A stretch of 64,000 bases of DNA from Cenococcum geophilum (Eukaryota): assembly GCA_050273025.1 (NCBI GenBank), contig CP158635.1:17856001-17920000 (forward strand), read 5' to 3'. Below are positions 10,298 through 64,000 of the stretch, piece after piece. Each line of letters opens with the position of its first letter. Position 1 is the stretch's first letter. Under the pieces are notes generated by a model. The model ran no database searches, was not told where the DNA came from, and saw only the letters and a program-made list of their open reading frames with translations. A program made the position numbers and the translations under genes.

Positions 10298-10378
10298 ATT
10301 ACAACGCCACTTTTTTTATCCACACCGTGATGACCAACTACCTCTAAAAACACAAAACACCTCAACCGACATGTACAA

Positions 10379-10962: not shown

Positions 10963-10993
<31 letters not shown>

Positions 10994-23964: not shown

Positions 23965-24072
23965 CTATCTCTCTCCTCTTTATCTTTGTTTTTAAAGATT
24001 TAAAATATCTCTAAGTTATTTACTAGAGGTATAATATCCATCTAATTAATTTAGTTAATATTATTGCTTATT

Positions 24073-34794: not shown

Positions 34795-37700
34795 CCTAAT
34801 CTTTATAGGAGAACAAGATATATAGAACCCTCGGTTTCCGCTCGCGTATCTATATCCTATTTTACATTTAGTATAAGCATATAACTATTAATAGACTTAT
34901 CTTTAGTGTTTTTATCAATATATATTACTTACTATTAATATAAAATTCGTAAATTAATATTTTCTAAAACTGCAAAAGTAGTTAAAAAAAGGAGGTATTA
35001 ATAATAACCCTAATTTCCTTACCATGCAATAATAACTCTATCTCCTAATAGGAAAGATAATGGGACGGTAAAGCTGTAGTCCTCGTTAATGTTATAGTTG
35101 TTTAAAATCTGGCCCTCTTTACCCTTCTGTACTTAAGGACAGTTTTCTTCCTAGCTCTAAACTATAACCTAACTCTTACCCTTATTATAGGAGAAAGATA
35201 TCTAATACGAGCCGCCGCTATATGCGGCACCTAGGTTATATATAGTTATTCCTATACTTCTTATACTATTAAATAGTTTATATTATTAGCTAAGAATAGA
35301 GAGCAGTTAATAAATATACTAAAAAGTTATAAGTTGTCCTGGCTGCTAGGTTACTTCTAGATTACTAGCCAGACTATTAATATTAACGTAATATCCTTTA
35401 TAAGGGAAAGGTTGCTAGCCCTAGCTAGGGCCGTAATGGTTAAGATCTCCATTTAATGGCATAATTAACTTATTAACATCTTTATTCCATTTAAATGGCC
35501 GGGGATTTCCTATATAAATATGCCCTATAGATATTCCGGCAGCGTATAAAAGGGTAGTAATTAGATAGAGTAGACTTATAGTACTATAAAACCAATAAAG
35601 TCAAGATTAGGAGTAGGGTCCAGAAATACTATATACTCTATAGCGCTAGGTCTCTATTTATAGCCCTAATGTTAAGTAAAACTTTTTTTTTGGGTTAAAC
35701 TTTCTTTTCCTTATAATAGGGCGCTTGGAACGGATCCCTAGCTTTTCTAACATTAAGAGGTAAGAAGTTTAGAACTTTTTAGGTCCAATTTTAACTATTT
35801 AGAGCCATTTCTAAATAAAAACGTATCTAAAAAAGGGCGGGCTCTAGTTCTGGTTTTCCACTTAAAATTGGCCTTAAAGAATTTAGCCTAGAAGCAGATT
35901 AACTAGATATAGTCTTCTTCTTCTTCTTTAATTTATTTACCTTAACCTCTCCTAAAGGATATACAGGCTACCACTACTAGGGTCTATCCTTAATATCTAT
36001 TTACATTATGCCACTATATACACGACATTTACGCCTCATTAAGGCCTACCGTTAATCCTCTACCTGTGGTCCCTATTTAGGGACCCGTCTACTTATCGCG
36101 ATTGGAATCCCTATAATGCTTAGGCGAAATCAAGTACTGTATTTAGCACCTCTGCGTTTATTAACCAGTTTTCCCTTTCCTAAGTGCCATAAGGCTTGCC
36201 TCCTAGCTTTACTAAGATTTTGTTAAAAGCGTCTCCTATCTTATTCCGTAGTTCTTATCTTAGTTCTTAAAGATATAGATAGTCTACCAGCACATAAACT
36301 ACTGTCTCTCTTGCTCCGTATATATATTTGTCCTCCTTACTAAAGCGGAAGACTCTGGCGTGGGAAGCTAGCCATAAGTGTCCTATTCTAAGCTGCGCTA
36401 GTAGGTATGCTCTGTTCCTTTATTAGGGGCTATAGAGCTTTTATATATGTTTTAACGGGAGGCCGTTGTCAATCCTACGTAGGTGCTTGCCTTTCTTTAT
36501 AGTCCGCCACTCTTTCTACTACTTCTAGAGTATCTTATCTTTATTATATTTCTTCTATAATGTTAGTAAGCGTTAAAAAATATATTGTTCCTCTAGGCCG
36601 ACCGCCCTTTTGGCTAGGTTGTCGGCGAACCACTCTATAGTAGCTAGCGCTAGTGCGAGTACTGTAATGCGTAGCTCCTTTAGGGCGCTATCTCTACTAA
36701 AAAGGGTCCCAATTTACTGCTATAAATTGGCTCCCCAATTTTTAGGGTATAATGGATCCCCTAGTAGATTATCAGAGTTTTCCTTCCATCTTCCTTCCTC
36801 TCCTATATATGTATAAGATTGGCATTATCTTTAATTGCTAGGTTCTGTAACTACACTTCCGTAATATAAAGAGTTCTATTATCTCTAGTATTCTTTCTTC
36901 TAACCGTTTTTGGGTTCTAGAACTGCACATTAGATATTACTGTGGATTAAAGAATAGAGAATCCTATATAGCGATTTGGTGTGCCGCTTTACTAGGACTA
37001 TCTTAATAAAACGGAACCTAGGTATCTGGTAGAAAGTACAGTTAAGCTCTCTTACTTATAGTTATCTAGTTACTAATAATGTATAAGGTCTATCGTTATT
37101 CGGTTTAGTAGTCCCTATATTAGCTCTTTTACTACAAATTACGGGAATAGCTAATGGAGGGAGATCTACTATAATGGAAGCAGCTCTAAAACTCTTAAAA
37201 TTCTTTCCGCTTTCTTCAGTTTCTTATAACGCGCTTTTCTCTACTAGAAATAGCGTATATATTTGCTTTTACTCCTTAGCACTAATAATAAGCCAATAGG
37301 TTTTCCTTATTAATTTAATTAGCTGTACTACCTTTAACGTATTTAGCTTAGGAGACGGCGGCGATAGCAGTGCTTAAGATATCTTGTAGTGGTGCTCTTC
37401 TTTAGCGTAGGGGTTTATTCTCTTAAGAGTCTGTAATTTAGCCTTTAGTTCTATCCATAGCTTCCTTATACGTATAGTCGCAGCAGCAATAGGGGCGCAA
37501 AAAGCCACTATAATGCTCCGACTTTAGTCAATTTAATTTAACTAAGGCCTTTATATTGATTGAGTTGCCAAGCCAGCATTAGCGCTAGAATTAGCTCGCA
37601 GGATATCGCATTAGCTAAATTCTGCGCTCCGTTATATAGTGTGGCGAGGCGTATAACTAGTATAGAAGATATCTTTTTGTCCTAGCTACTTATAGGTTGG

Positions 37701-38129
37701 GTTTTCGATTATAACATTTGGTCCTTATAAAGTAAGGTAGTTGTGGAACTAGACCTTCTAAATCCTGACGTGTTAAAGATGTACGAAATCCCCTATTATC
37801 TGTCCTTTCTAATATTAACACTTTTAGGTTATATATTTGTCCTCTCTTTAAAGTTCCTTTTTTACAGCCATTTCTAGTATATTAATTAAAAAGTAAGAGG
37901 CGGGACTAATGCTAATATAAGACGTGGTATGAAGCTAACGAGTTAAGAGTATTAGAAAGGCCCTATTAGGGCATTAAAGAGGCGAAAATGAAAATCAAAC
38001 TAAGTTATATTGGGTTTAATTTTATTACTTATTGGAACCCATATAAGTTGCTTTATTTACTTAAGATGCAGTAATGTAAGAGACTTAGCGCCCGAGTAAA
38101 ACGTCCATAGAAAACCGTCCTTTAAAATT

Positions 38130-39240
38130 ATGCGTAAGGCTGTAACTGGCTTTACTATCGGCTACTATAGAGATAAAGTAAGTCAATTACAACCTAGAGA
38201 TGGAGGTTTAATAATAGACTCTATAGAGCCTAGAGGTGACTATAGAGATACTAGGCTAAGTAAGGTTTAAATTTAGTCCAGTAGCCGCTATACCGTGGGC
38301 AACTATATAGAACTACGGTAGGAAGGTGTCCTAAAGCGACATCCTTATATCCAGAAAGGGCTTCTCTGGGTAAATTATTGCAATTAGAATATGCATAAAA
38401 TGCAGATAATAATTAGGTTGCCTTCTCCCTTTAAGCTAGGGTCCGTTAATAATTGTTTATAGAATATAACAACCGTAAGGAGATTGACCTTATAGTACTG
38501 TATAACGTGCTTAGATTAAGTATAAGATTTGGCTATAGGCTAGATCTAAAAACTAAACCTTAAGCCGCTAGGTCTTTAGAAGAACTCTAAATTTACTCCT
38601 AGGGTATAGAAATAGACCCCTAAATTGCAATAAGTATAGCGCTTTGCTTAGTTGAATAACATCCACTCTTCTAGTAGTACTAATATTATCGTTATCAGCT
38701 ACCGCCTTCTTATAATAGGTGGAAAGTACTATAGAGCGTTGGGTATTTTTAAATAATAAGGGAGCGATGCAAATATAGAATACCTTATTGATTAGGCACT
38801 AAATTTTATAACTAGAGAATGATACAAGCCATCTTAGGAGCCTATAAGTTATACAAATAAATTACTAGTTAAAAGCTGGGCGACTAGAGGAGAGGGGCAC
38901 CGTAATAGTGTAACTGTGGACTTAAAAGACCCGTATATAAATCTCAACTGAGGTTAACATCTTAAATAGTATTTAGGGCCTCTGCTTATAAAACAAACGC
39001 TTTATTAGAGATATAAATTGTCGCGCTAGAAGCGCACTACGCCGCGCAGAGTTAGAGGTACCTATTTGATTTCAAAAAGTCTTAGTATAACTCCTTAAGA
39101 TGGCACCGGCTATCCGTTGTTCTAGATAATATAGGAAGACCATTCTAAAGTTAAGAAAAAGATTAATCTCCGTGTATGGATATAGTAGAGTATATTGAAA
39201 CTTATATTTGTACTAATAACTAGTTCTAAGTTACGAATGT
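38130..39240 (+). pseudogene. RIPed chromodomain-containing gene (domain 38718-38880); gene limits approximate
   Basis: De-RIPed GKYYRALGIF...GSDANIEYLID(W)A(P)NF.T(G)E(R)Y(E)PS(W)EP.S.TN.LLV.SW fits the fungal chromodomain pattern YLIDW...TGE.Y.P(S/T)WEP. No integrase recognised upstream. Confidence 0.7.
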
Positions 39241-42200
39241 AGTTTTTTAGCTTTTGCTGTTAAAACTTCCCAGAAAGTCACAGGAATAAGAAAGAAAGGA
39301 AGATATAAAATAAGAGAATTATTAAATAGGTTAAGGGCAGTCAATTAAATATATAGATAGGTTAAGTATAGTGACTAATTGAATTAAAAAACTGTAGACG
39401 ATTATTAACTATAGATTAACTGTTTACTGCGCAGAACAAAGATAGGTCTTACTACGTGTTATAAATCCTAATAATAACTGCCGCAGCTCTTCTCCAGATT
39501 GACCCACTGTATTAGAGAAAAGGGGGTGAAGAAGATTTTATGCTTTAGCTGTAGACGTAAACCAATCTATTTACCCTATCCTTGTGCCAATAATTTCAGG
39601 CAATCAATAACCCTCTATAGTAGATTAGCATTTTGTAAATAACCATTATATATATAATCTGGTGACTTAAGCCGTAGATATTAAACACCCCTTAAAAAGC
39701 CCTTTTAGGGACCCTTATTGCGTAAATTAAGCCTCCTAGTAAATTTACAATTATAAGATCTCGAAATAATATTAACACGCTCCGTTAATAGAAAGTTAGC
39801 TTATTGGTATAGATAGAAAGATAGATTGCTAGTAATATCGCGGCAAACCTAAGAGTAAAGTAAGTAAAGATTCGCGCCGAACAGCTCCTTAGTTAGTAGA
39901 ATTTAGGTCAATAGACGTAGATCGCTAAGATAAGAGCTAAGGCTGTTATAAATCTTATATAAAGCCTTTATATTTAACTATTATACCTAAACGCGAAATA
40001 TATAAATGGGATCGTAGATGCCTAGATAACAATCACTACACCTAAGTAGTTAATACGTTGCCACCAATTAGCGACTCTCTTGCTATGGTTAGAAAATAGG
40101 TAATAGGCTAATAAGTAGGTAAAGTATATAATGACTCCTAGGGTAAAATTGAGGACTATAATGGTGTCTATAGACGGATTACTATATTTAAAGAGGAACT
40201 AAATTAGGATAATAGAAAATAGAATCGCTGCTAATAAATAAGACCAGATGTTAACTGTCTTATTATACAGTTTTTTAACGTCGCTTATAGAGCGGAAGTA
40301 TAAGGATAAGGGCTCTTGGTAACCATAAATAATAAATTTGTCCTTTTACTAGTTAGTTATAGATTCCTAACGCGTGGCCATGGAAATATCTATTAAAACG
40401 TTAAAAGATAGAATATAAAAATCGCAGAAATAGTCTTCTCTAGTAAGAGAAGGGAGTAAGCTGCACTACGATAATTAAAAACTTGGCTAGGGCATCTTGG
40501 CTATTATCAGAAGACCTATTCTAGACCAGATCTTCTGCACCTATTTTAGTATCTACTATAACTAAATAGAGTAACTAAAACGTAGACCTGTAAAAATATA
40601 TATACTTATAGAATGTAGCTCCTTCCCTAACTTTAATTCCACGTGTTATTCCAAATAATAAGCTTAACTATTAATATATTTAGTTTCCTAATATTTCTAT
40701 CTCTTCTTATTATAGGGCATTTATGGGTTGGTTTACGCCCCTACTAAATAACAATTTACTAACCATCTAGCTTAAGGAAAATAAAAAGCTAAATGAAAAC
40801 GACTAGCGTGTAGGAGAAATTTGAAACTATAGTATAAACTGTTACTGGTGCGGTAAATAAGTCACTAATAAGAGGTAAAGCTAGTTACTTTAACGCTTAG
40901 AGTGTACTTCTAATCCTACTAAACTAATCTTTTTGCAATCCGTAAGAGTAATACCAATTCCTAGGAATTTATAAACTTTAAGCTTCTTCTATAGCTCCTA
41001 TATTAACAGATTTTCCGCCTAATTAGTATATTCCTTACTTAGTGTGTAAACCCTCTCTAATAGCGAATATATATTTGTATAGAATTAGGCTTTTATATTT
41101 AGAAAAGTCCTAGGCTAGAAGAAGAGTTAGAAACACAATGGCCTAAGAATCCTAAGTTAATAGTTTATTTAATAAGACAAAGGACTTCCCAAAAATGGTT
41201 TAGAGTAGGTGAAAATTGGCGGAGGTAATTGCTCCCCTAGTATAGTACTATTTATTTTATTAATCACTCCAGGACTAGAGTTATAAGTATAGCTACTAGG
41301 TAATTCGTTAATGTGTAATAATCCGCATTTCCCAGAGAGTTTACTTAAGGTAGTAGCCTCGTCTTCTACTTAACTTAAGTTTAAATAGACTGGATAGTAA
41401 TAGTATACCTTATATATAATAAATTTAAATTATTGGTAATCTGTTTAGGTTAGAGTATATATTAACCTTAAGCAGATGCCTAGATACTATGCCTTTTCTC
41501 TAAAAGAGCGGCGGCCTCTATATAAGACGTATTGGTATTTTAGAATAATCTAGTAACTAGAAGCTCTCTCACGTACATGATTAATTGGCGTTATTAACCT
41601 ATTTTGACATTTCGGAAAAGAGAGAAATTGTTAGGCATTTCCGTCTATTATAAGAGCATTTAGCTTAATATATAACAGTTATGCCCATTCTTCTTAGCTG
41701 AGGAGACTTTTGTTAAAGAGCTTAATATTATAAATACACGTTAGAGAGAATAAGGTTAAATCCGAAATGGATATTAGGAGGCTGCTTTTCAGTCCTAAAA
41801 GCATCCCCTTTAGCGCTCCTAAAAGTTCCGGTGTCTTTTCTTACCCTTTTTTATAGCCTAATATTGGCTTAAGAACGGGTTAACAATTGGCCTCTAAACC
41901 TATTAGTGCCTTTTCTAACCCCTTTCTTAGCTACAAATTGGCGGAAGTCTATTATTAACTCCCGTAGGTGCCAATTCCAAAATTATAGGGCAATTATACT
42001 CTATTAGCATGAAAAGGTATAGCAAAGATATGTTTTTAGATATTTTATATATTATAAAAAATAAAAAATAAACCCCTATATTGCGGACCTCACTATTATA
42101 TAGAATCTATTAGTTTAATACCGCTTACTATAAAACCTAGGTGCGAACATTATAAGTACAAAGGCAAGCCTACTTTTAAAGATTAGGATAAGTGGCACCA

Positions 42201-45200
42201 ATGTGGAGAAATATATAGGAAAAAAGAGCGATGTTATAAAGGGCCCTTTAGGTAATTTTCACTACTATAGCATTGCTGCTTAGGATAAGCAGATAATAGG
42301 AGCTGTTAACCGTTTTGCTTTAAGTCTAGCATTATTTATACGTTACTTGCAAATATCTCTCTCCTATTAGTGCGGTAAAGAATGGTCTTATAAATTATAA
42401 AGAATTATATAACCCTGTTTTTTATAAAACTAAAAATTACAAAGGCAGGAAGAATAGACTTCTTAGGCAAAGGCCACTAGTATTATTGTTAGTCTGCTTA
42501 TAGAGTAGTATTCTTTTTTAATTTTAGAGAACGAAGAGAGAAAAAGGTTCCGTAATTATATAAGTTAGACTTGAAAACGGACACAATATCAGCTAAGAAG
42601 AATTGTTTTTAGTACTCTAAGTAGAGCTCGGCTCATATTTAATATTAATTACAATAAGAATTACCGAAAAACATGCGCTTAATACCGCTATAATTAAATT
42701 AATAATAATTTGGAGAATTTTAAAGTCAAATATGCCTAATATAGAAAGAGATAATAAAAATAGAAGTAAAAAAATCCCTAACGAAATATATTTTTTAGAG
42801 GAAAGATACTTTAATATGGACGCGATAGTTGCGTAGATTAAAGTAATTGCCTAGAGAGAACCACGTATAAATCGTATATAGTAGTAAATTGGTATAATAA
42901 ACATAAGTAGGTAGAGTATAGAAATCTTAGAGATATTATTACTAATATAGGGTGCTCCAGTTACTATAACAGCCGATTAAGTTAGTAGTTTTCGGTAATA
43001 CTACCTTTAAATATACCGTAACTGTGAAATATATAGCTAAAAACTACTATAATCGGAGCAAAGAGAGTAAATAGCTATAACACGTTGTTAGTATATACTT
43101 AGAATTAATAATATTATTCTTACCCAAATTTCCGCCCAAATTCTTTTCCGATTTAGGGATAATGATTCTTGCAGAGGTTCGGTTCCATACTCTTAGCTTT
43201 TAGTAAGCTGTTTAAAACTAGACATTTTTTTTCTAAATAATAATTAGAAAAAAAAAACAGTCCTATACTAGCTATAGGTGGCTAGTCGGTTATATATAGA
43301 CACTAGTTTTTATTAATATAGTTAGAAATCTAAAATAGGATCCCTAAGGTACTTCCTAGATAAGGCGGCTAGATGTTACTACTCGTAAGTTTTAGGTTTT
43401 AAGCAAATAAAAACGCCCAATGTTGGTTCCTAAAAAGGGCCATTTTTAGTATTTTAAAAAGGGGTCTATATCTAGGTATTTAAAGGTCGCACTTATATTT
43501 ACAACTAAGATAAATAGCTTAGCTGGTAGTCGTTTTATAGGTATTAGGGCAATATGCAATGAAAGTAAATTCCGGATACTTAGGATAAGCGCTAAGGAGT
43601 TACACGTAACCCCTAGCGTTATATTAGGATTGCTCCTTAAATATCTTAGGAAAACTGACGTTACTGAGCTAAATTCCTTGTTCCCCAAGTTAAAATCGCC
43701 CTATAATGGCCAGAGGTGTCTAAAATAAGGATTATTGATTTCTCTCCGCCTACCATCACTTTAGAATAGGCCATTTCTACCTTATGTTATTACTTATGAA
43801 TCGACCTAAAACTAATAGTATTTACTAGGGAGTCAGTTATTTTAAAGGATCGTTAAGGCGACTACTTTTTTCCGAACTAGAATTACACGCTACTTCCGAT
43901 AAATTAGCCACACTTGTTTAAAGAAATATTTTCCCGCGAAACATGTTTATAACATTTTACTATAGTCCCTCCCTTATAAAGTGTTGCATTATATCTACAC
44001 TCTCTTAGTCTTCGATCTTTCCTCTTTCTTTATTTAGTCCACTCTTTTCTTTAGTTCTTTTTAGGAAATAGAATTTTATCCCATTAACTAGCTATAGTTT
44101 AACCGCCGTAACGTCTTTCGGTCTGCATACTAACTAGGAAAAGGGCTTATTTTGTAATAATTCCAATATTAACTAGATAGGAAGCATTTCTATAATTACT
44201 TTGGCCGCTTATATTATACTCTTTATCTTCTAAGTTGCATAAGCTATTTAGGTTTCCCTACTATATTAGACTGGAAATAATAGCTACAAGATTGGTATTT
44301 ATAGAGAGCTACTTAGTAATGTAGCGGAGCAGTTATATTTATAACCCTTTAATTATTCCTTGTGTAAAACCACTAGCTTCCCTTATCTAAGCATATTATT
44401 GGCTCCTAGCAGTTAATAGAGTAATGCTGTTGACTTATTCTCACCTCTAGAGTATATATCTCGCCTTGCAGCGATAATAATATACTACTATAAATAGTCT
44501 AAAATTAGAGTCTATGGCTAAGCTAAGTATAGTATCCTCACTACTATCTACGCCTAGACTCGGTAATCCCTTTAATAAGGGTTCGGCGCAATTCTCCAGC
44601 TTAGTTAGATAGTTAGGCTTGCGATTAGAGTATATAGTTTAATATTAGATAGTATAGATTAAACTTTTTTAAGTACTTATAAGACATCATTTTGCCCTAT
44701 ATTTATTAGTAAGTATAAACGCTAAGGATCTATTGCTTACCTCTAGCTATAAGCCATTGATTTGGCGCGGACTTATACTATAGCCTATATGTTTTAGAGA
44801 AGTGAGCAAATAAGTTTCTTATAGAGCTTAACTCATCTTTAGAGAACTTGTTCTTAAAATTCTCAACTATTGACCTTAGTATTTAGGGTTAATTTAATAG
44901 AACGCTAAAGTTTATTTTATAAACGTTAGTAAGTCGACGCTCCTAAATGGGTAAACTCCTAGGTATTTAACTCTTGGGGTTTAGAACTGGCTCCCTCTTA
45001 AAGTAGGGGTCCTGAAAAGGTTCCCCTCCCCCTGGTTTAGCTCCCTCTCTAGGGTACTATATCCCGCTTTAAGTGCATTATTAAGCCTCTAAAAGGCTCA
45101 AATTTGGGTCGTTAATGGTCTAGTTTTAGAGCCCCTTACTCTTACGGACAGAAGAACTTGCCTTAGCTTAAAGTGTTTTCCATCCTTTTTGTTAGTAGAG

Positions 45201-45764
45201 TACCCTTATAAGATACTTATTGAAAGGTTATAAGAATAAAAGTCATTATTAAGGCAATATGGGCCTGCTTACTACTTATTTACTTCTACTATTAAACGAG
45301 GAATAAAGCTTCTAGGCTCCTTATTCCTTATAATCGCCTTACCGCATCTTAGAAGTAGATAACTAAAACACTATTTCTTCCACCTATAATAAGCCTACTA
45401 TTAGTATAGCATGGGCAAACATAGATATGCATTACGGTAATTTGTTATAGATGGTATTGACGTTTATTATAGGAGGGAAATGGATTAGGGATACTAGGTC
45501 CTGGGCGTAGGCAAGTAAATAAGCTCTGCGCCTATAATTTAACTGCGTAATATATTACCTAAGTAGAAGGATTAAATAAGTAGGCCTATATTACTTTATA
45601 GTCTTTATAATTTCTTCTCACTTATTATAATAAATTATAGCATCTCCCATATTATAAACCACCCAGATTACTTCAATATTAGCCTCTATAGTGATCTTCT
45701 ACGCTTACTAGGAATACTCTCCTTTGTAATATTTTAATCAATAGGGTATACTAGAAATGTACTA

Positions 45765-46046
45765 GGCCCGGCATCTACGGAAGCGATTGCCGCTTTACTA
45801 AAGGAAAAAATTATAAGCGAGATGCTTAGGTTAGAGGGTAAAGCGAAAATATATAGTATCTGCCAGTACGAGTTTAAAGAGGGCGAAGAGGCCACTATGT
45901 TACATTGTTGTCACTAGTTCTATAGCCGATGCATTGGCTTATAGCTTAGTAAGTAAGACTCTTACCTATACTGTAGAAAAGGCATTACCGAACGTTAGGA
46001 GGATAAGACTACTAAAGAGTTATCTAATACTAAAGCCAAGAACTGA
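45765..46046 (+). pseudogene. RIPed RING-H2 E3 ubiquitin ligase (RNF115/126-like C-terminus); 5' part not delimited
   Basis: De-RIPed GPASTEAIAAL(P)KEKI..EML..EGKA..(C)SICQYEFKEGEEATMLHCCH(W)F(H)SRCIGL(W)LS..DS(CP)YCRKGI. Confidence 0.85.
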
Positions 46047-49000
46047 AATAGTGTCGTAGCCCTAGTAGTTAGATATATACTAACTCTTTTTAGCGTAAGC
46101 TAAAGTTAAGAGATGCGTTCCTCGACTAAAGTTATAGGCTTTTTTTTTTTTAATATTTTCCATTCCCTAATTTTAGGAACTTTCTTTGGCGGCATTATAG
46201 GAACTAAGACTCGAATTTCTGTGCCGCGTCTATTTATAAATCCTAAGAGCCTTACGTTTTCAGCTTACTGTAACTATTATTTCACACTAACCACCCTCTT
46301 TTATAATTTTATATAAAGCTTATAATATATTAAAATAATACTAGTATTAAGAAAAGCTAGGCCTCTAGTAGTAAGAAATAAATATACCTCCTAGAAAATA
46401 TATATAAATCCTCCCGTAATGATATAAGTAATATCATTCCTTAAGTACAATTACGACTCTAAAAATATTTCTGTTTTGGTATTATATATCTATTAAGAGC
46501 AATTTAGTCCTGCCTATAACCTTAAAGGTATTAACCTTCTAGGAGATTATTGAAGAGATATAAGGTTATTGGATAATATGCTAGCAAAAGTCTGCTAGCT
46601 CCGTCAATTAATAAGCATTTAGGAGGCCTAGAAAGTGGGGCTTACACGGAGATGTTTATAGTGAAAGCAATTTCTTAAGTGCTTTAATTATTTCTTCTTT
46701 ATTAGCTCGCATGCAGATTACTATAGTACTACTTACTTTTACTATTATCTCTAGGAGATTTCTTATGTACTGTTGCTTAAGGGATTTTAAAAGGTCTAAA
46801 TACGTTCTTACCTAGAACTAATTAATTCTAAATCCAAATTGTTATAGTATATAACTACCTACTTTTATCATCTCTGTGACATTTAGAAGTAGTAAGTTTC
46901 CCTCTACACGAGGCATTTTTAAAGGCCTAGGATTTTCCTCCCTATAGCAAAAGGTTAGGAATGCCTAGCGGTGATATAAGTTGAGAAATGTTGTATTTAT
47001 GTAGCAGTGACATACACTTGCCCAAATCGTCGTCCTTTATATCGCTGGTAATCCTTAGTATAGTATTAAGGTAACTAAAGTCGTTTCTGCCAATAAGGAG
47101 GCCTCTAAGAGAGGTCCTATATACTTATCTGCTTGCCTAGACAAATTCGTAGAGATAAGATATATTGACCCTTCTAGAGTGGATTTATATATATTTATCC
47201 TAATAGAAGCGACTACCTTTTGGGGGTTTACAAGGGCAATAAATTTGCTTCTACTTAGTAAAGGTTATATTCGCCCCCTTTAAGACTAGTCTTATAACAT
47301 ATAGCAATCTTTTAAAAGTATTAATATAAGAGGAAGTAATGGCTATATATTACTTTACCTACCCTACTTTTGCACTCTAACCAGGTTTGTTATCAATATT
47401 GGTTATTAATTAAGTTATTAAATATTAAATATTGATTAATTTAATATTAATATCAATATTAGATTGTTTAATATTAAAATATTGACTTTAAACATAAGTT
47501 CATTTGGTGTTAATTTTTATAGTATTGTGCCCTAAGGTACTAAGATTAAGTACACCCTAGATAGACTGTAGTAGTAAACCTTATATAAATATATCGCCGA
47601 GGTATATCTATAAAATAGACCGAGCATGTATATAATCGATATGTCCTATAAAACACCTTCCTTTACACATATATAGGACCTCTAAAATTACTCTCACTTC
47701 TAGAAACAATAAGCTATTGATAAAAGAGATGGTTATTACTAGTTTGTAGCAAAGTAAAAACTAGAACTATATTAATAAGAAAATTAATATTCCTCCTAGA
47801 AAACACACGCAACCCCTCTATTAATGCTTTAGAGCTGCCCGGATTTCGTACTAGGATATACTGCTTAAAACTAAGTACTAGTGATAAGGCCGGCTTTAGC
47901 TCTAAAATTACTTTAAATTAAAGAAAATTAATTTTGTACCTTTGGGTTGATATAATCTGCGCTGTTAGGACTATACTTATATCCGTTTAAGAATAGCCTG
48001 GGAGCATTAATAATAGCAGTATTGATAGTAGATAGTTTATAGGGTTACTACTAAGTACTTTGGCTATATTAAAACAATAACTTATAAGCCAATAACGAGA
48101 CTACTTACATAGTAGTTAATGTCGGGCACTTTTTTGGTAAAGTCTCCTTTTGGAAACTGGTTAGACTACTCTTAAGTGGACTAGCTGCGGATAAGGATGC
48201 TCCGATTATGAATATTATGTAGAATACAGAAGTATATATATTTTAGGATTAACAAGTTTTGATAAGAAAAAAGAAATGGAAGGGGATATAAATTGTTAAA
48301 ATAAAGAGACCTATTTACAGTATTTAAAGCTGGACGCTTTTACTAATTAGGAAAAATCCGATGTTAGATCTAGGGGATGTTTGTAGCTCTTTATAGTTAG
48401 GAATCTATAAACGCTCTCTAAGGACCTAATTTAGCGTTCTAAAGAAAGCGCAAGAATATCCCTAAAGATACTAAAAAAGGAACGTATAGAAATAAATTAG
48501 TACTTAGGAAGGTCTTAAGCTTTACATCAGCCAAGAACTCTTCCTACTTAACTACGACCTACCTGCCTAGTAACGGGCAGAGATGCAAGATAAAGGGCCC
48601 TATTAATATCCGTTTTATATTCCTTTTACAGATACCTTTAAGTCCTAATTTATCCCTAAGTTTTGGTTTGTCACTAACTTCTAATTCGTCTCCTGATATT
48701 AACTACGAAAGGATTATCCACTTTAATAACTTTTTAAGGTCGCCTACAGAGCTGGCCTTAGATAATGACGAGTATAGCCCGCCTAATGGAGGTATTACCG
48801 GTAAGAACTCCGCTAGTTTCAGCAGTTGTAGACACATTTTAAAGGGTTAATATAGCCCTAAAGTTCCTTAAATCAGTAGTAAGTATATTTTAAAGCTTAT
48901 TGTATAGATGTAGTAGACCTATTAATAATCGGCAGGAAATCTAGTAATTATAGAGGATAATACGGAAGATAAAGATAAAGACTTTACTAGTATAATCTAA

Positions 49001-52000: not shown

Positions 52001-52414
52001 ACTTTAGTAAAGGCAAGTAGGAATGCTGTAAGTGCGAATTTTACGGAGTATAGTTATATACCTTGGAGAAACAGCTTTCTAATAGTCTCTATAGAAGTCC
52101 TCTATAACATCTTGCTTCCTAAATTGAAATAAGAAGAGAAACAATATCGGCGGAGTGAAACACTTATAAAAAAAAAAGATAAAGAACTGGTATATAAACG
52201 GGCCGCATTCTACAAAGGATGTTGCAGATACGCTTTTCTACATATACACTATTACACTAAAGAAGTCTAATATTAAATTTTAGTAAAGATTAAGTTTCCG
52301 ATAGGCTGTCTCTCGCTAGTACAATACCCTATTAAGGTATAATAATATATATATACTGAAGCAAACTCTTAGATATATTAAGAGGAAAGGATAGGTATAT
52401 AAGAAGTAAACGTT

Positions 52415-52991
52415 TTAGACACGCTTACCACAGAGGCAACGAGCAAGTTAAACGTCTTTACTCTCTATTACAGCCGTTAGTTGTTATAAATGATGAGAGG
52501 AACGTGTATTAAATACGGATAGTAACTTGCTTGGCGTAGATCGCGCATATATTAGCGTCTTTAAAAAGAGTAATAAGGTATACTTCGGCGCTCTCTTATA
52601 GAGTGCTAATAGCAGAGCTTTAGAAGCGGAGATCACTTTTAAAGACCTAAGCAATTTTACGGACTAGATGTTAGAATAGGCGTTTGCGGATTAAGAGCTT
52701 GGTACTCTTCTAATAGCGATAGATTTTACGAAGAGTAACGGTACCAGGCTTGTACCTATAAGGCCTCTTATAGGCGGCCTTACTAGCGAGATGCTTATAA
52801 GGGGTTTTCCCACCTATAGGCCTACCTATTAAATTAAAGTGAGAAAATAGGAGGCCGATGGTGTTAAGGAATTAAGCCCTTTATCTCTAACCCTGTTAGT
52901 GAATAGAACTGTGGCCGGAACTAACGCGTTAAAGGTAAGCGGATAAAAATAGACGGTTTGACTTATAAGCAGTTTATTTAGTGCGAGCCAT
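52415..52991 (-). pseudogene. RIPed, diverged histone H3 gene (3 exons: 52991-52967, 52825-52517, 52464-52415)
   Basis: Exon 1 ATG GCT CGC ACT AAA TAA ACT GCT = MARTK(Q)TA. Exon 2 contains GGK.P.KHLASKAA, RYKPGTV.LR, KST.LLIRK, FKSDLRF.SSAI and CAI.AK.VTI. Exon 3 QSKDV(Q)LAR.L.G.RV*. Intron 2 is GT...CTAAC...TAG; the intron 1 donor is RIPed to ATAAGT. Confidence 0.95.
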
Positions 52992-54999
52992 TTATAGTAC
53001 TATGTGCTGTGCTAACGCTCTAGCTTTTAGAGTTTTAACTAGTTCCACCTTAAAGCAGCTTAAGTAAGTATCTACATTCGCATATATCCCTTATTAAATT
53101 GCTTGTAGTTATATTTTAAATCTAGTATTAGGCACCACATGTCCGCGAAGTAAGAACGGCACGGCATGATTAAACGCTGCTTAGTAGTAGAGGAGCGCTA
53201 GGCATAGACATTATCCCTAACAGTTTAGACAAAGTATTTAACGAAAGCGGTAGTGTTAATGTGTAGAAAAGAATTCACGTTTTAAAAATAGGCTTTTATT
53301 ATATCTATTTATTAGTTATCCTCGCCCCTAATATATAGGAGCCCTAGAAGGCCATATATAATTTATAGGAATCCAATTTTAGAACTATAAACGAGTCCGG
53401 AATATTGTTTAACTTTTAGTTAAGGTGATGAGACTTAAAAACAAGCTGGCTATTTTAGAGCACCTAAGCTATAAAGATATAAGGCGAATATACAATGGTT
53501 GTAAAGCTGAGGTAGTATACTAATATCGTATAATTAAGTGGTCTTAGGATAGTACGAGCGGGGGACGTAAAGATATAGAGAGAAACCCTAAATTAGCAAC
53601 TAGGGACTTATTTCTAAGATCCTTTTAAATATAAGCTAACTTAGGAGCGTAGTTTAGAAGCTAATTTAGAACCTAAGGCACCAAATTTTTATAAGAGACT
53701 ATTTTGTAGTCCCCTTACTTACTCTCTAAACTACAGTAGCGAAGCCTTATTTAGAGATTTTGGTGCCTTTCCCGAACCCCTTTCTATTAGGCTTAAGAAC
53801 GTGTCTAAAATTGGCCTATATACCTATAGGTGCTTATTCTAGCAATATAGTAGATATAATGCTTTATAAACTAAAAGTCTAAGCCGCGGGGCTTGCTATA
53901 ATATAGAGATTGTTAGTCTATATTCTTATACCGCCTCCTATACTATAGGATATAAGTGCCAATATAAGGGGTGTAAACTTGCTTATAAAAGTAGCGCTTC
54001 ACTTAAACGACATATTAAAAAGGCTTACCTTCCCCCTTAAGATTATGTAGTGTATGGGGGATGCCATACCGGTTTTTGTTTTATGGGTAGAGTATAAACA
54101 CCATATATGTTTAAAAGAGTTTAGAAAAACAAAAGAGATATAATAAAGAGATCTTTAGGGGGTTATACTAGCGTATTATTACTGCTTAGGACAAGAGCGA
54201 AATAGTAGCCATTAGCTATTACATTTTAGTCTTGCTCCGCTTATATTCTTCTTACAATTATATATCTTAAAATGATAAGATGCTAGGAAAAATGGAATTC
54301 TAAATCAAAGGGCATAGGCATATAAGAAGACGTCTAAATTGTTTCTATATAATATAAAACGTACAACCTTAATAACTGCTTTAACAGTCGTTTAATTTAA
54401 CTAGTCCTTACTATATAGGGTAGTTGCAAGAAAGCTTAACATACCGAGATTAACTAGAGAACGTTAATATTTTTTAACCCCCGTATGCGATTAGCTTAAA
54501 AGTTTAGATAACGTCGATAATATAGAGATGGTTTTTGCCGTTACCCTAAAGATACTATTCGCTGTAGATAAACTATAGCTATTTCTCTTAGTATATATTC
54601 TAATAGGCTTAAATAAATAAGAAATACTTGTGTAGGCAAGCAATGGATTAAAAGAAGTGTATTATAGTTCCGCTGCTAGTAGTATAAGAGGCTAACATTG
54701 TAAGCCTTATCGAGATGCTTAACTAACTGTCTTTAGCTACTAGATAAGCCACAGCCTTTATTAGCAAATACTGCTGTAAACTAGAAGATTACCTTAAAAT
54801 AAGCCGAGGAGTCTAACTAGATTAAATGTTTAAAGGTCTGTATAATCTAAGATAAGACATAGATGCTCCGAGCTCTATTATCTGGATATAGAGATTATCC
54901 TTTAACCTTATACAAAATGCAAGCTAAGAGCGGTAGAGATACTTGTCTTAGTAGCCGTTTTAAACTAATAGGGAATCCCGAAATTACTTCTTTATAGAG

Positions 55000-55670
55000 A
55001 TAGCGAGCGGAGCGTTGAATTTACCGCTGCGATTAGAATCCTATAGTCGTTTTCCTTAATTCCTATTAAGTATTCGTAGGCTTCTTTAGCTTATCGGTAT
55101 TTTTTTAGTACTTTTGAGTTTAAAACTCGGCAATATGCCTTATAAGACAATCCTCCGTAGTAGCTGCGACATTCTCTAACTCTGGAAGTTGTAGAACTGC
55201 ACTATACACCCTAAACAAGTGCGTATTGTTTTTAATGCCAGCGATTATAGCGTTGGGATTAATATACGCCTAAGCGTTATAAATGTCAAGCGCGAGCATA
55301 GCTTGGTATACCGCTGATATTAAAGGTAAAGTTGGACTTAGACAGTAGGGATGACTTAGTTTCGGTATAGGATCTAGTCTTAGCTTGGTAGACTGTTTTA
55401 AGGTAATTAATAACGTGTGTAATGGCGTAGGTAGAAGCCGAGCCTATAGGGAGACGGAAAGCTGTTTTGTCTTAATTTAGTAGATGCGAGAAGTAGTTAC
55501 GCGCATGCGTGGATGTGTGTATTAGTAGCTGCTTAGGTACATCGCAAACTTTCTCCGCGCCGCTTAGAGTATTTATTAAAATAGTGACTTTGGGACCGTC
55601 AAGGAGATTTAGGCGATCTTTTAGGTCAAAGTTAATTAAGTGGACTAAATCGTTGGCCTACTTAGAAGTG
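55000..55670 (-). pseudogene. RIPed gene with a BTB/POZ-like N-terminal region; limits approximate
   Basis: LLDGPKVTILINTLSGAEKVCDVPKQLLIHTSTHARNYFSH resembles the BTB start pattern (V.I.V......VPK.LL...S..F). Judged by eye only. Confidence 0.4.
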
Positions 55671-57186: not shown

Positions 57187-57392
57187 TACTATAAAATAAC
57201 TAGCCTAAAAAGGACCCTAGGTAGGCGTTAATTAGATATTATAGAATAGAACATTATATTTTATAACACTCCTATTAAGAAATGGAGGTTCTAAGGTCCT
57301 TATAAATTGAAATATATAGAATTCCCTGGCCTAAAGCTGGTCCTAAATTTGCTAACTAAATTTCCTTTTATATACGAAACCCTAAACAATAA

Positions 57393-59275
57393 AATGCAAT
57401 TAATCTACTAATTAAAAGATAGCTAGCACTGCACCTCTAGTTAATCCTAGTCCAGATTCTTCTAATAAAGATAAAGGCGACATTAGATATATTACCCCAG
57501 CGCCTACCCTAGCGGCTAGTAGTGAAGCTGTTATAGGAAACACTAGTTAATTAAATAATAACGCTACTAGTGGCGGTGAAGCTAATAGATCGAATAATAA
57601 CTCCGCTAGTAGTGGTAAAGCAAATAGATTAAATAATAACTCTACTGGTGGTGGTAGAGCAAACTAGGCTCGTTAGGATAGATTAAATGATAATAATAAG
57701 GAGTCTAATAATAAGGAGTCTAATAATAAGGAAGAAGGTACTAAAGAGCAAGTTAAGGTAATAAAAAAAGTGTCAGACTGTTATAAGCACGAGTACCACT
57801 AAATTTTTAGTGTAGAAGAAAATGCTGCGAAGGGAAAAATAACAGAAGCTGCTTATAAACGTAGGACACTAGTGCACCCTATCTACTATAAAAATTTATA
57901 GGCGGGCAGCGCCTTTAATAGTAAGTGGAGTGTAAATAGAACCTATTATATAAAGTTATACTATCCTTTATATTAGAGATTATGCATATAGCCCGCAAAT
58001 TAGGGGTTAAAGAAAGCACTCTAAACGAAATATGGATATAGGATGGTAAGATAAACCTCTTAGAGGATAATATGGATATTAATGACTATAATAATTCGTA
58101 GCCTATTAGTTTTATCTAGACCGTTTAGAAAGAAGCTACGGAACACTTAAGTAAACTCTATAAGGATTTAGATAATTCCGCTGCTATAGATTTGCTTAAG
58201 GCCCTAAATAGTAAAATTAAAGAATAGAATGGGAAGGACGACATTGACGTAAAATAATGGAATATTAATGCTTAGCATTTTTAGAACAATTATAGGTAGG
58301 TAAATAATTTATTTAACTGAATAATAGATTATCCGGAAGATAAAGAAGCTAAGCGCCGCTATAAAGAGTATATTAAATTGTTTGCGAAGTTTAATAAACC
58401 CTACCACTACCTAAAAGAATAGGCGCTTAAGCCTCTTACCCTGTAGACTATAGACGAAGAGCGGGCAAGGAGGGTTAATTAGCCACCTTGTTTGTCTCTA
58501 GCGTCTGCGTAGGCACTCTAAGAAGTAAGACCCGGGTTTATAAAGGAAGGTGAAATTTTTTTAGGAATGTAACTAATAGTATAAGTTAGTAGGGTTACCT
58601 AAGAAGAAATAATATAGAAGTGCATATTCTTTGTAGAGAAGGAGGGCCGTACTAATCCTATGAAATGCGTATAGAGTGATAAACTTAGATAGAAGGTAGC
58701 CGACGGTTATATTAAAGAACTGCCCGCGGCCTAAAGACGTGATATTTAAAACGTATAGTCTAAATATAGCTGGCAGGACCGTTGAAATTTCAACTATATT
58801 ATTGGTTGGAATTTTAATGAGGAAGGAACCGCGTCTAGGTACCTAGAATTGTTTAGTTAGTGCCAATTTAAAGACGGGACGTAAGATATCCTAAACTGGT
58901 AAGCTATGCGAAATATTCTCACGCCTAAGAAAGCATATGTAAAGATAGAAGATTTTTTTCTCGATAAAGACCTTCCTATTTTCTGGATAAAGAGGGCCCC
59001 TAGGAGTTAGTCTATTAGAGAGAAGCAGTACGCTATAGAAAGCTTAAGCCGTGAAAGAGGAAGAACGCTAGTAAGTAGTATACTAGTAAGAAGTATACTA
59101 GGGAGGAGTATAAGAAGTAGATTTAGAATAGGCTCTATAACCTCTAATAAAGGGCTTAAGTAACTAGACTTACTAGAGGATAGATAAAGAAAACTTAAGA
59201 AAGGCTAAGAAAAATTATAGATATAGATATAATAAGTACTAAATATACTGTAGCAACGAACCTATTCGGACTATT
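57393..59275 (+). pseudogene. RIPed multi-exon gene with a degenerate J-domain-like region (57758-57920); limits approximate
   Basis: VIKKVSDC.KHEYH.IF(G)VEENAAKGKITEAAYKRRTLVHPIY...AGSAFN followed by GTAAGT resembles DnaJ Y.ILGV...A....I..AY.....HPD....A..AF but lacks the D of HPD. Three 39-bp N-terminal repeats (57553-57665); C-terminal RS(T)(P) repeats (~59070-59120). Confidence 0.5.
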
Positions 59276-60361: not shown

Positions 60362-60796
60362 TTAATTATCTTTACCCCCACCTAGGCCGCGCTTAGGGAT
60401 GCCTTAGTCGTAGGTGCATTAATTATCCTTACCGCTACCTAGGCTGCGCTTGGGGGTGCCTTAATTATTCTTACTACCACCTAGGCTGCGCTTGGGGATG
60501 CTTTAATCGTCCTTATAGTTATATAGGCTGCGGTTAAAGGTATTTTAATTATTCTTACCCCCACCTAGGCTGCAGTTAGGGCTACTTTAATTGTCCTTGC
60601 CGCTACCTAGGCTACGCTTAGGTCTGCCTTAATTGTCCTTCCTGTTACCTAGGCTGTAGTTAGGGCTGCCTTAAGCGTTCTTATCGCCACTTAGGCTGCG
60701 TTTAGGTCTGCCTTAATCGTCCTTACTATTACCTAGGTTGCGCTTAGAGCTGCCTTAATTGTCCTTATTACTACCTAGGCTGCGTTTAGGGCGTAC
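60362..60796 (-). repeat. Ten 42-bp tandem repeats (one 15-bp insert), probably a coding 14-aa repeat G(S/T/R)PKRS(P)GGGKDN(Q)
   Basis: Unit ~TTAATTGTCCTTGCCGCTACCTAGGCTGCGCTTAGGTCTGCC starts at 60362, 60419, 60461, 60503, 60545, 60587, 60629, 60671, 60713 and 60755. Unit and insert lengths are multiples of 3. Confidence 0.9.
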
Positions 60797-63700
60797 TTAA
60801 ACCTAACTATGCTTAGCACTAGCTTATTCGTCTTTTCTATTAGTATAGTTAAGCTTAGGGAGGCCTTTATCTTCGCTATTAGTATTTATTGCTTTTACGT
60901 TAAGCAGGCGTTTAAAATCAACTTTAGCCATATTAGTGTAGGTATAATTTAGAAGGATAAAATTTTTGCCTTTAGATTGGCTTGTTATTATATCTTAATA
61001 TATTATATCGCCTTTTACGAACTTTCCGATAATAGTATGGAGGGTTGTTATAAACAAGGAATATTTCCCGAATTAAAGTCCCTAGGGGCCTTTAGAGTCA
61101 TTATTAGAGGCTGTTAAAACGGCAAATATAACTATATAAATGGCGTTATTAAAGAAATGGATAAGTAAGGTATGTTTATAAAACTAGGATTTTTTTAAAC
61201 TATCTAAACTTATTTGTAGGTTTACGGAATCTATCTCTAGTAGCGGCGCCGCAGCATTTCCTCCACACTCTTAAGGTTTTCCTTTTAATGTTTACAACAT
61301 TTCGTCCTTTACTTAAAAATCTGAAGGCTTTTCTATCCAGATTTATACTTTACCCATTTTTTAAGCATTATTGGCGTTAACGAAGGCAAGTTTTGTACTT
61401 TACAAGTCTATTAGTCTTACTATCCTTATATATAGTATAATATACTAACCATCCTTTATTCTAGATATGCTGGATACTTTTTACTTACTAGCGAGCTCCT
61501 AAACTGCGCCGTACTTTATATTATAGGTGTTAGGTTAGGATACGCTTGCCTACCTAGCGCAATGGCGCTAAGGTAAAGGACGATGCGATTTATCTTTAAG
61601 GAATGTCTTAGTTTCTTCTAGCACTCTTTATATTCCACTATAATCTTAGTAGATTAGCACATCTTAAGTATAGAAAAGTTTATAACTTAACGAATTCTTT
61701 TAAGTATGTTAATGGTGAAAGAGAGGATTTATATCTTAGCTTTAGTGTAATATAAACGAATAGCTATAGGTGCTGTAATGCCTAGTAATATAATAAGTCT
61801 CACAGCTTATAAGGCTCCGTTTTGATTAGAGATATATAACACAAATATATTAGTAGTAAAATTTGGATAAAAATGGCTATATATAGCAATACCGCCTTAA
61901 GAAAATGTACTTAAATAATTGGACTATTAAATATAAACCCCGGCTTTTTATCTCCACAGGACCTACTATTGTAAAGCCACTAAAAAGTAGGTATACTGTA
62001 GTTTACGTTGACCTAGATATTAGCCCTACCTTATAATATATATTACTGTATAACCGGACCCGCCCAGGACCTAGCATATTATCTTAAACTCGTACCTCCT
62101 AAAACTATAGTATATTCTCAGCCGCTAGCAGCTTACTTTAACGCTCTAGAAGCTTTTCCTATTCGTCTTTAAGAACCTTAAACTAAGTAGAGCGTGTTAG
62201 ATATAATAAGTTTAGCTTCCTCCTATATAAGCGTCTGCCGATCTTTATTACTAGGAGTTAAGGCTATACTTATATCCTAGATTACCAGAAATCGCTTCTA
62301 TTAAGTTTTAGAATATTTGGTAACAGCCTATATATTACTAGCTTTGGACCTAGCGGTAAGACTTATTATGTGTGGTGGTGTTAAAATTATAGGTAGCTTT
62401 GTATCGCCCTCTTTATTATAAGCCTATAATAACTACCCTGCTTTATTATAAGACACCTATTTTAGAAAGCAGTTAATTGGGTTCCCCTTACTGCGTTGCA
62501 GATGTAAGAGGAGCTGGGACTATTAGGCGTAATAGCTAAGTTTTGGTTCGCATAGAAGGAACTGACTATGGTACTAGCTACGCCCGATAGGGCGCGAGGA
62601 TGCACGCTGTTACTTTAGTCACATTTCCCCATTATTGCCTTAAGGCCTTTACCATATAGACCGGTCATTAAGAAAGGAGAATTTATTTAATAGATTGCGA
62701 AACCTCCCTAATGTTCCGTATAAGCTAGAAAACAGAACCTACTTATAAAGTAAAAGATTACCTTTGGTAGACTCTTTTATAAAGCTCCCTATACTCCTAG
62801 CTATTTATAATAATCGCTGTAAAGCCTAATACTAAGACTATATAACAGTATTATATATTAGTAAACTAATAGCTAAAATCGGAAGGGCTTTGTATATCTA
62901 AGTTGCGATTATAATATAACTAGTTTGCTTAACGGTTCAGAATATAAAGGAAACCGTTAATGTAAACTATATACTAATTAACTAAATAGAGAATGCGGAT
63001 GTAGGGTAATCCTATATATACACTAATCGCGTAAGCTAAAGAAGAATAGCATTTAAACAAAAAATATAAAGGCGCTAGACTGGCTTATCTCTGGGATATT
63101 CGCGTATTGCTACTAAGGTGCAAATAAGTGCGGTGGAAAAGTAACTAAAGAGCCCTATTTTAATAATAGAGGGGTTTAGATTCCTAGAAAGCTAAGCTAT
63201 TACAGTAAAAAGGGTAAGGTAAATAAATCTGTCGACGGGAGCCATAATCTTAAATATCTAAAAGGAAAAGAATAAAGGTAAAAGAGGGAGAGGGCTAGAT
63301 TATAAGGACATTGTTTATTAGAAATAAGGCGAGCTATATAACGCTATATTAGTTAAGCGGCTTTCTAGGTAAGTTAGCGCCTAATATAAAAGACGGCACC
63401 TAGGGCGTTTAGGGGCCAGTTACCTCCTAGTACTAAATTAGAGGCTAATTACACCTAATGGCGCAATGGGTTTCGGGTAATGCTATAAAGGAAAGGAGGA
63501 GAGTGTAAACCTTTTGTTTTTTAATAGAGCTAGTAACTTGTAAGCTTTCTATAATAACTATACTAAGCTTTGTCCTCTAGCTGTATATAGGTAAAATAGT
63601 GGCTTATTAACTTTCCCTCCTTAGGCATTATATGTTGTTATCGCTTGTTATTATCGCTCTAACCTTCCCGCTAGGATCATTCCGTACCAAATATTATTAA

Positions 63701-64000
63701 GTACTGGAGGCTATAAAAACTAAAAGGTAAATAGGCAAACTAAGAGATAGGAGCGTCTTTATACTAGGCCACAGTGGTATCCCCAACTAGTAGATTTATA
63801 CGCTAAGCCGATACTAGGTTAATAGTAGGGTAATAAGAGGTCACTATAAGACTTATATATAGGCTGTCTGCGAAAAACTTAAACTAGTAAGTTAATAATA
63901 CGCTGTATATCTTTACTAAATATCTTATTATCTAAATCACCAGGGCAGCAATGGCTCGGCTTCTTTAGCTTCCTTTACTTCCTTTACCTCTTTTTCTTGT

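Follow-up and report, generated by a model that had tools for sequence, protein, structure and literature searches.

Large genomic regions affected by repeat-induced point mutation (RIP), like the AT-rich isochores of the Pezizomycotina, are usually described as transposon graveyards, and cases of the AvrLm4-7 type, in which ordinary genes have been struck, concern single genes beside repeats and are attributed to leakage. In the present study, we analysed a 64,000-nucleotide stretch of the Cenococcum geophilum genome (assembly GCA_050273025.1, contig CP158635.1, positions 17,856,001 to 17,920,000 of the forward strand; hereafter the window, in whose numbering all positions are given), the right-hand part of which is occupied by a block of RIP-mutated DNA. 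The RIP signature is genuine and clear, and the block is a large RIP-affected region of unusual content in that it holds whole dead cellular genes, including a copy of the histone H3 gene. While the initial annotation of the sequence had taken it for a dead Starship-like element with chromatin- and ubiquitin-themed cargo, the block is probably a once-duplicated gene-bearing segment that was killed by RIP and whose partner copy has been lost.

Starships are giant cargo-carrying transposons mobilised by a DUF3435 tyrosine recombinase, the captain, and their typical accessory genes encode DUF3723 proteins, patatin-like phospholipases, NLR proteins and ferric reductases. One of them, Hephaestus in Paecilomyces variotii, was destroyed by RIP after duplication, and passages of the same source describe immobile Starship remnants as common (Urquhart et al., 2023; PMC10104507). 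The block resembles RIP-killed Starships of the Hephaestus type, for which such remnants are reported there (PMC10104507), in that a long gene-carrying segment is RIP-mutated along its whole length; it differs in that no captain, Starship-associated gene, terminal repeat, empty site or second copy was found in the sequence read, which ends at position 64,000. Swordfish, a Starship-like mobile element of Zymoseptoria tritici with a duplicated sirtuin gene and variable copy number, shows that giant mobile elements can carry a duplicated chromatin-related gene, and histones appear in passages of its description as methylation marks and sirtuin targets, with histone H3 itself named only among the references (PMC11231334). 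In contrast to Swordfish, the present block is dead and single-copy over 35-41 kb, and no recombinase was found in the scanned parts. The AvrLm4-7 pseudogene of Leptosphaeria maculans is a single-copy gene inactivated by RIP in an AT-rich region (Table 4 of PMC6714961), and shares with the block the occurrence of a RIP dinucleotide signature and premature stops in non-transposon genes; here, however, several genes lie in DNA that is evenly RIP-mutated over at least 29 kb. Unlike the AT-rich isochores of the Pezizomycotina, finally, these 29 kb contain whole dead cellular genes without a transposon domain and are single-copy over 35-41 kb.

The RIP-affected block and its edges

According to the passages of the RIPper description that define it, the default thresholds for a RIP-positive window are a product index above 1.1, a substrate index of at most 0.75 and a composite index above 0, and a large RIP-affected region consists of at least seven consecutive RIP-positive 1-kb windows (PMC6714961). 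Using non-overlapping 1-kb windows with a step of 1 kb instead of 0.5 kb, we found that all 29 windows between 35,001 and 64,000 passed these defaults, which makes the block a large RIP-affected region. Their GC content was 0.29-0.39, TpA/ApT was 1.38-1.79 and (CpA+TpG)/(ApC+GpT) was 0.39-0.73, and the composite index remained at 0.73-1.25 over the 29 kb without decay with distance from the gypsy element described below. In the adjoining gene island, the composite index was -0.96 to +0.05, with none of the 13 windows from 10,001 to 23,000 being RIP-positive. The indices flip between 23,300 and 23,400, forming a sharp left edge, and a contig of sequencing run X8 tracks the island to 23,325 and then continues with 1,681 nt unlike the window (record 26). 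Both the dense RIP over a long block and its sharp start at ~23340, as proposed in the initial annotation, were therefore confirmed. The block comprises two parts:

23,326-23,541, unstranded: left stub of the RIP-affected block, with the left boundary at ~23,325-23,400 (RIP-index switch and X8 contig break)
34,796-64,000, unstranded: main body of the block, without recognisable transposon genes, continuing past the right end of the window

Between the two parts lies a retrotransposon that itself contains a second element:

23,542-34,795, minus strand: RIP-mutated Ty3/gypsy long terminal repeat (LTR) retrotransposon, with LTRs at 23,542-23,965 and 34,372-34,795 and pol at ~24.9-28.0 kb
29,972-33,281, plus strand: relic of a hAT DNA transposon inside the gypsy element (Dimer_Tnp_hAT, 7.4e-7, above the Pfam cut-off, at ~31,965-32,210)

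The assignment to Ty3/gypsy follows from the Pfam matches to RVT_1 (5.7e-18), RT_RNaseH (6.3e-17), SH3_Tf2-1 and gag-asp_proteas. The two LTRs, 424 nt in length, differ at 38 sites, 37 of which are transitions; with transitions left out of account, their identity is 99.8%. The element is bordered on either side, at 23,537-23,541 and 34,796-34,800, by a perfect 5-bp target-site duplication (CCTAA), and because of this duplication the stub must once have been contiguous with the sequence from 34,796 onward. The gypsy element is a later insertion foreign to the original block, in keeping with the earlier statement that the block is interrupted by this insertion only. Within it, a contig joint of the source run skips exactly 29,972-33,281, and the summed contig depth over the nested hAT is 1,750-4,000, unlike that over the remaining gypsy sequence. 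The gypsy family itself reaches a summed depth of 57,000-407,000 as against ~20-30 for single-copy DNA, with more than 130,000 contigs matched in run X1; this abundance points to a very repeat-rich genome.

In a transition-blind self-BLAST of the window, no long internal duplicate of the block and no partner copy was found. In transition-blind space, 38,177-38,330 and 49,617-49,773 formed a weak inverted match (82% over 161 nt, slightly above the noise level of ~75-80%). It lies near the following stretch, and may represent a small repeated element:

37,009-38,342, unstranded: stretch holding a small low-copy repeat, with a summed depth in X1 of 62-66, compared with 21-28 for the other seven bins between 35,008 and 41,000

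Variant contigs occur at 37,746-38,142 within this stretch, which contains no Pfam match.

Dead genes within the block

To identify the former content of the block, 34,796-64,000 was translated by six-frame read-through with an X at each stop, and the resulting 90 pieces of ~800 aa (15 segments in six frames) were compared with Pfam at E ≤ 0.05. Short pieces were used in this re-scan because long read-through queries had lost weak matches. Queries of ~5,000 aa had returned from the block only HlyIII (5.5e-22), Histone (3.7e-20) and a weak RING signal, and the insensitivity of queries of 3,000-5,000 aa was evident from the copia element in the left flank, the RVT_2 domain of which was absent in a 3,099-aa query and was detected at 1.1e-5 in an 800-aa query of the same frame. 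Six-frame hmmscan of RIP-mutated DNA is thus better done with short pieces. The 90-piece scan yielded the following matches:

HlyIII, 1.4e-23
Histone, 6.1e-21
zf-RING_11, 5.8e-4, below cut-off
zf-RING_2, 0.02, below cut-off
Three C2H2 models, 0.01-0.02, below cut-offs
DUF4512, 0.011, chance level
DUF7641, 0.041, chance level

None of the 90 pieces matched a reverse transcriptase, integrase or transposase at this threshold, and none matched DUF3435, DUF3723, patatin, NACHT/NLR or ferric reductase. The same approach detected the gypsy element, the copia RVT_2, the hAT (in short pieces) and a pogo-type DDE_1 (in a long piece) in the flanks at comparable RIP levels. An ordinary RIP-degraded transposon mosaic, the first explanation considered, was rejected in view of the zero count of transposon domains together with these positive controls. 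DUF3435, DUF3723, patatin, NLR and ferric reductase were likewise not detected in the scanned parts of the flanks, namely 29.9-34.4 kb (six frames, short pieces), 23.9-29.9 kb (plus strand in short and minus strand in long pieces), 1-9.3 kb (long pieces only, apart from one 800-aa piece) and the gene island (its 15 longest open reading frames only). These results support the view that the block consists of RIP-destroyed cellular-type genes, without recognisable transposons. The relics identified account for 1,615 of the 29,205 bases (5.5%), leaving ~94% of the block unannotated; 3-base periodicity was dropped as a means of finding coding relics, as it failed to flag the known H3 and PAQR relics. 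The individual features are as follows:

39,515-40,381, minus strand: dead intronless PAQR/HlyIII (adiponectin-receptor-like) gene with 12 in-frame stops
52,415-52,991, minus strand: dead histone H3 gene, ATG to stop, with in-frame stops
45,855-45,950, plus strand: probable RING-H2 zinc-finger relic
53,951-54,025, plus strand: possible C2H2 zinc-finger relic, weak (zf-C2H2_aberr 0.0099, zf-C2H2_11 0.016 and zf-C2H2 0.021, all below cut-offs)
60,377-60,838, unstranded: 42-nt tandem repeat of ~11 units, reading as a 14-residue repeat in every frame, with strong 3-base periodicity

The PAQR relic scored 84.1 bits against the HlyIII cut-off of 26.2 and covered profile positions 4-221 of 224, identifying it as a member of the seven-helix PAQR family. 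It is colinear with an intact protein of 279 aa (P0017), with which it shares 137 of 274 residues (50% over 275 aligned positions), and C>T or G>A changes alone can explain 75 of the 137 mismatches. The corresponding controls were much lower, since T>C/A>G explained 12 and two transversion pairs 13 and 11, respectively, and shuffled columns were C>T/G>A-compatible in 13% of cases on average and in 21% at most. Furthermore, 11 of the 12 in-frame stops align to W, Q or R codons, the remaining one aligning to an H codon.

A DNA-level comparison was made possible by L001, a 1741-nt metagenome contig that encodes P0017 at positions 130-966. The relic is identical to it at 565 of 822 bases, and the differences comprise 68 G>A, 67 C>T, 26 T>C and 21 A>G changes as well as 75 transversions, amounting to 135 C>T/G>A against 47 reverse transitions. 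By the following base, C>T affected 30 of 53 CpA (57%), 18 of 41 CpG (44%), 11 of 38 CpC (29%) and 8 of 61 CpT (13%); by the preceding base, G>A affected 35 of 58 TpG, 22 of 41 CpG, 5 of 32 ApG and 6 of 45 GpG. This spectrum, with its preference for CpA/TpG, is the pattern of RIP with a sizeable CpG component.

P0017 and eight relatives (P0174-P0181) match the PAQR relic to a similar degree, at 70-78% when RIP-compatible codons are counted as identical, a figure to be read as an upper bound. Named proteins come no closer to P0017 than 49-53% identity, the nearest being from Exophiala, and the intact proteins most similar to the relic make up a small subgroup found almost only on metagenome or assembly contigs, among them P0174 on a 14-kb and P0180 on a 94-kb contig. 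In the metagenome collection, the close relatives sit only on contigs of ~1.7 kb (L001 and L002).

The histone relic scored 75.4 bits in the Pfam Histone model against a cut-off of 26.4, and its best H3 chain in the PDB matched at 6.3e-34, aligned with a gap of 9-10 residues. Both the histone fold and the H3 tail are present. The gene opens with MARTKxTAYKS; its main exon extends from GGK to VTI, and the final exon, ESKDVxLARCLCGKRV, is closed by a stop. Both intron-like interruptions between these parts contain CTAAC-like motifs and end in AG, and the second follows VTI, where extra sequence is also present in the read-through Pezizomycotina-type H3 protein P0040. Compared with P0040, the relic is identical at 70 of 104 residues, and of the 34 mismatches 23 are RIP-compatible versus 5 in the reverse direction. 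The H3 gene that the initial annotation had listed among the cargo is therefore real. Its observation of intron-bearing genes other than transposases agrees with the two intron-like interruptions of the H3 relic and the lack of any transposon domain in the 90 pieces; the PAQR relic is intronless.

In the H3 relic, nine tail codons, approximately canonical residues 27-35 (K27 to V35), are missing in frame (within 52,700-52,830). None of seven proteins inspected, drawn from the best 150 of 10,747 library hits, was an intact H3 with the same tail deletion, and apparent ungapped matches proved to be local artefacts. As far as its sequence can tell, the relic could be either an H3 variant that was already divergent when it died or a canonical gene copy whose divergence came later. 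Near it, Pfam in short pieces revealed no H4 partner, and a homologous-protein search with the relic gave two word candidates, neither of which was significant.

The remaining relics were weaker. The RING-H2 protein of the initial annotation finds some support in matches to zf-RING_11 (19.9 bits) and zf-RING_2 (15.6 bits), which stayed below the cut-offs of 27 and were weaker in long pieces than in short ones. By eye, the Cys/His ligands are either retained or replaced by Tyr, as C>T/G>A would give, and the C3H2C3 pattern can be read only if Y is counted as a mutated C or H. The supposed basic SP-repeat protein turned out to be the 42-nt tandem repeat, a DNA repeat without a Pfam match and without any sign of a former gene. 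Neither the chromodomain reader nor the BTB-like protein was matched in the 90 pieces; by eye, the sole chromodomain-like tail is the one that terminates the pol of the gypsy element, which is not part of the block. For the J-like protein, no DnaJ match was found in the 90 pieces, and the piece 57,740-58,009 had no PDB match at E ≤ 1. The sequence around that piece comprises an N/S/G-rich stretch with strong 3-base periodicity (57,554-57,760), followed by one with J-domain-like spacing by eye and HPI in place of HPD (57,803-57,898).

Consequently, of the proposed theme of chromatin and ubiquitin only the H3 relic and one sub-threshold RING match fit, and three of the six genes named for it were not reproduced. 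The theme is unsupported, because the PAQR receptor, the strongest other relic, does not fit it and ~94% of the block is unannotated.

Copy number and origin of the block

The occurrence of the block elsewhere was examined in sequencing runs. With a 10-kb query (45,001-55,000), 7 of 24 listed runs, representing three samples and three studies, held 0.96-1.00 of the 31-letter words, five of these rows possibly being the source itself; the remaining 17 runs under the same species label shared 0.00-0.03. Four runs (X1, X6, X8 and X14) were then compared with 21,001-41,000 at a likeness of at least 80%, on the level of contigs only. The summed depths in X1, the likely source run, were as follows:

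Gene island: 96-260, with individual contigs at 28-34
Block, 35,008-41,000: 20.9-28.3 in seven of nine bins, and 62-66 at 37.0-38.3 kb

In six of the nine block bins of X1, the sum equalled the depth of the lone covering contig (20.9-22.1), being 28 in one and 62-66 in two. X6 gave the same picture at a block depth of 5.6-7.9, and the block is single-copy today over 35-41 kb in X1, X6 and X14. In the source run, no partner copy at 80% identity or more was found over 35-41 kb, i.e., the duplicated target on which RIP acts is not seen there at present, and no contig joint among those listed bridged the block as an empty site would.

In X14, the island is ~97.5% identical to the window and the block ~90-92% identical, with 52 of 603, 193 of 1,940 and 61 of 764 letters differing (records 13, 15 and 16). 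Its word share of 0.03 over 45-55 kb fits an identity of ~90% there too. In X8, the island is ~97% identical and the block was matched only in parts (35.7-38.3 kb, ~85%); X8 is without contig cover at 38.3-40.3 kb, and neither this gap nor the low word shares were counted as absence. Because X14, with its share of 0.03, carries the block at ~90%, low word shares reflect divergence rather than absence. The block thus appears to be older than the split of these lineages, old and resident, insofar as this can be judged from contigs, which do not place the block in X8 or X14.

Considering that RIP is even over at least 29 kb and stops at a sharp edge, we infer that the whole segment was once duplicated, and the account that we regard as probable is that RIP killed this duplicated segment and that its partner was subsequently lost. 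The stub at 23,326-23,541 together with 34,796-64,000 and the sequence beyond would then form one large RIP-affected region of formerly functional protein-coding DNA, which would originally have contained an H3 paralog as well as genes for a PAQR receptor, a RING-H2 protein and, probably, a C2H2 protein. In the first step, the whole segment, with its edge at ~23.33 kb, would have been present twice in a pre-meiotic nucleus, as a result of segmental duplication, of a translocation united by a cross, or of a large inserted element. RIP would then have converted C to T on both strands of both copies, mainly at CpA, thereby creating stops at Q, W and R codons and lowering the GC content from roughly 45-50% to 29-39%. 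Thereafter, the partner copy would have been lost via segregation or deletion, and the dead AT-rich block would have persisted and drifted, later gaining the high-copy gypsy element, which in turn gained the hAT. The initial annotation had similarly held that the whole block was once multi-copy; uniform RIP and the sharp edge are best explained in this way, although no second copy was seen in the window or, at 80% identity or more, over 35-41 kb.

Several observations weigh against this account. No second copy was seen, and with only 21,001-41,000 compared, neither a partner of less than 80% identity nor differing copy numbers across 41-64 kb could have been noticed. With ~94% of its length lacking identified content, the block could harbour unrecognised repeats, and it does contain one low-copy repeat at 37.0-38.3 kb. 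In the comparison of the PAQR relic with L001, CpG was hit almost as often as CpA, and part of the C>T excess could stem from deamination of methylated cytosine in heterochromatin instead of RIP proper. In the H3 relic, 11 of the 34 mismatches and the nine-codon deletion are not of RIP type.

If the account is correct, the block offers a clean case of RIP erasing a long non-transposon gene segment, including a complete copy of the essential and highly conserved H3. RIP-rich regions, which are usually masked as transposon graveyards, can then preserve traces of large-scale gene duplication or insertion, a point that bears on the role of RIP in limiting gene duplication and on the recognition of dead cargo elements after loss of their recombinase. 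By itself, the block reveals no new system.

Among the alternatives, the Starship origin put forward in the initial annotation fares best, though we consider it unlikely. It would make the block one end of a giant element that transposition or a cross had brought to two copies before RIP killed it, with the captain located beyond 64,000. The sharp edge at ~23.33 kb adjoining intact core genes, the departure of the X8 island contig at the same place (23,325), the cellular-type content and the near absence of 45-55 kb words from 17 of the 24 runs all agree with such an origin. The idea is reasonable and not new in kind, because RIP-destroyed duplicated Starships are documented (in the sections concerned of PMC10104507) and a sirtuin-bearing Starship-like element, described in parts of PMC11231334, sets a precedent for chromatin-related cargo. 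However, none of the Starship genes sought was found in the block or the scanned flank parts, and no captain relic is present at 34.8-38 kb, where one would be expected if the edge at 23.33 kb were the captain end. Moreover, 35-41 kb has single-copy depth in X1, X6 and X14, the low word shares stem from divergence (~90% in X14, parts at ~85% in X8), and no terminal repeat, empty site or second insertion site came to light in the sequence up to 64,000 or among the joints listed. A mobile-element origin is thus unproven, and the Starship-like identity assigned to the block is not supported, given that no captain or typical accessory gene was found in the scanned parts of the window, the single-copy state over 35-41 kb and the presence of the block in X14.

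A more specific form of the proposal has the least probability of all those considered here, namely that the block formed the cargo-bearing end of an ancient giant element, since killed by RIP and with its captain beyond 64 kb, which carried zinc-finger/RING proteins, a PAQR receptor and an H3 paralog whose tail lacked K27-V35. If true, such an H3, borne by an element and devoid of a major silencing-mark region, would represent a novel type of cargo directed at the chromatin defence of the host; in a narrow literature search, we saw no report of histone H3 as Starship cargo.

RIP leakage combined with heterochromatin decay is a rather improbable source of the mutations. On this explanation, the block would always have been single-copy, and would have been mutated, in the course of numerous sexual cycles, by spill from the gypsy element and other repeats and by deamination of methylcytosine. 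The extreme abundance of the gypsy family (depth up to 407,000) and its presence inside the block, the small repeat at 37.0-38.3 kb, the nearly equal mutation of CpG and CpA and the single-copy state today are what it would lead one to expect. The distribution of RIP around the gypsy element is not: on the island side RIP ends within ~215 nt of the LTR, and away from the island it persists undiminished for 29 kb (composite index 0.73-1.25), being equally strong in 38.3-41 kb, where no repeat family was detected.

Lastly, a mosaic of very old, unrecognisable transposons with a few captured or flanking host genes, to which the unannotated ~94%, the transposon mosaics in other AT-rich parts of the window (pogo-like DDE_1, copia, gypsy and hAT) and the proven loss of weak matches in long queries would lend themselves, is distinctly improbable, since none of the 90 pieces of 800 aa contained a transposon domain when all four transposon types of the flanks could be recognised under comparable RIP, 35-41 kb has single-copy depth in a genome where the nested hAT family reaches 1,750-4,000, and the H3 and PAQR relics each comprise an entire gene rather than a fragment.

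The gene island and the left-hand tract

In the window as a whole, a GC-rich, RIP-negative and gene-bearing island at ~9.0-23.3 kb is flanked on either side by AT-rich tracts positive for RIP (1-9 kb and 23.3-64 kb). Among the 15 longest open reading frames of the island, Pfam identified a Fungal_trans transcription factor, an SNF2/RING helicase and a Na_Ca_ex exchanger. Searches of the window for Rfam families and tRNAs were negative, so that it offers no 5S or tRNA target site. The left-hand tract contains two further transposon relics:

~1,340-1,573: pogo/Tc1-like DDE_1 relic (Pfam 1.5e-4), just upstream of the copia element
2,958-8,473: copia-type LTR element (RVT_2 1.1e-5), with LTRs at ~2,958-3,110 and 8,321-8,473 that are 97% identical

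The copia element is bracketed by a pair of 46-nt inverted repeats (2,274-2,319 and 8,933-8,978) that are 93% complementary, and these may be the ends of a DNA transposon that received the copia insertion.

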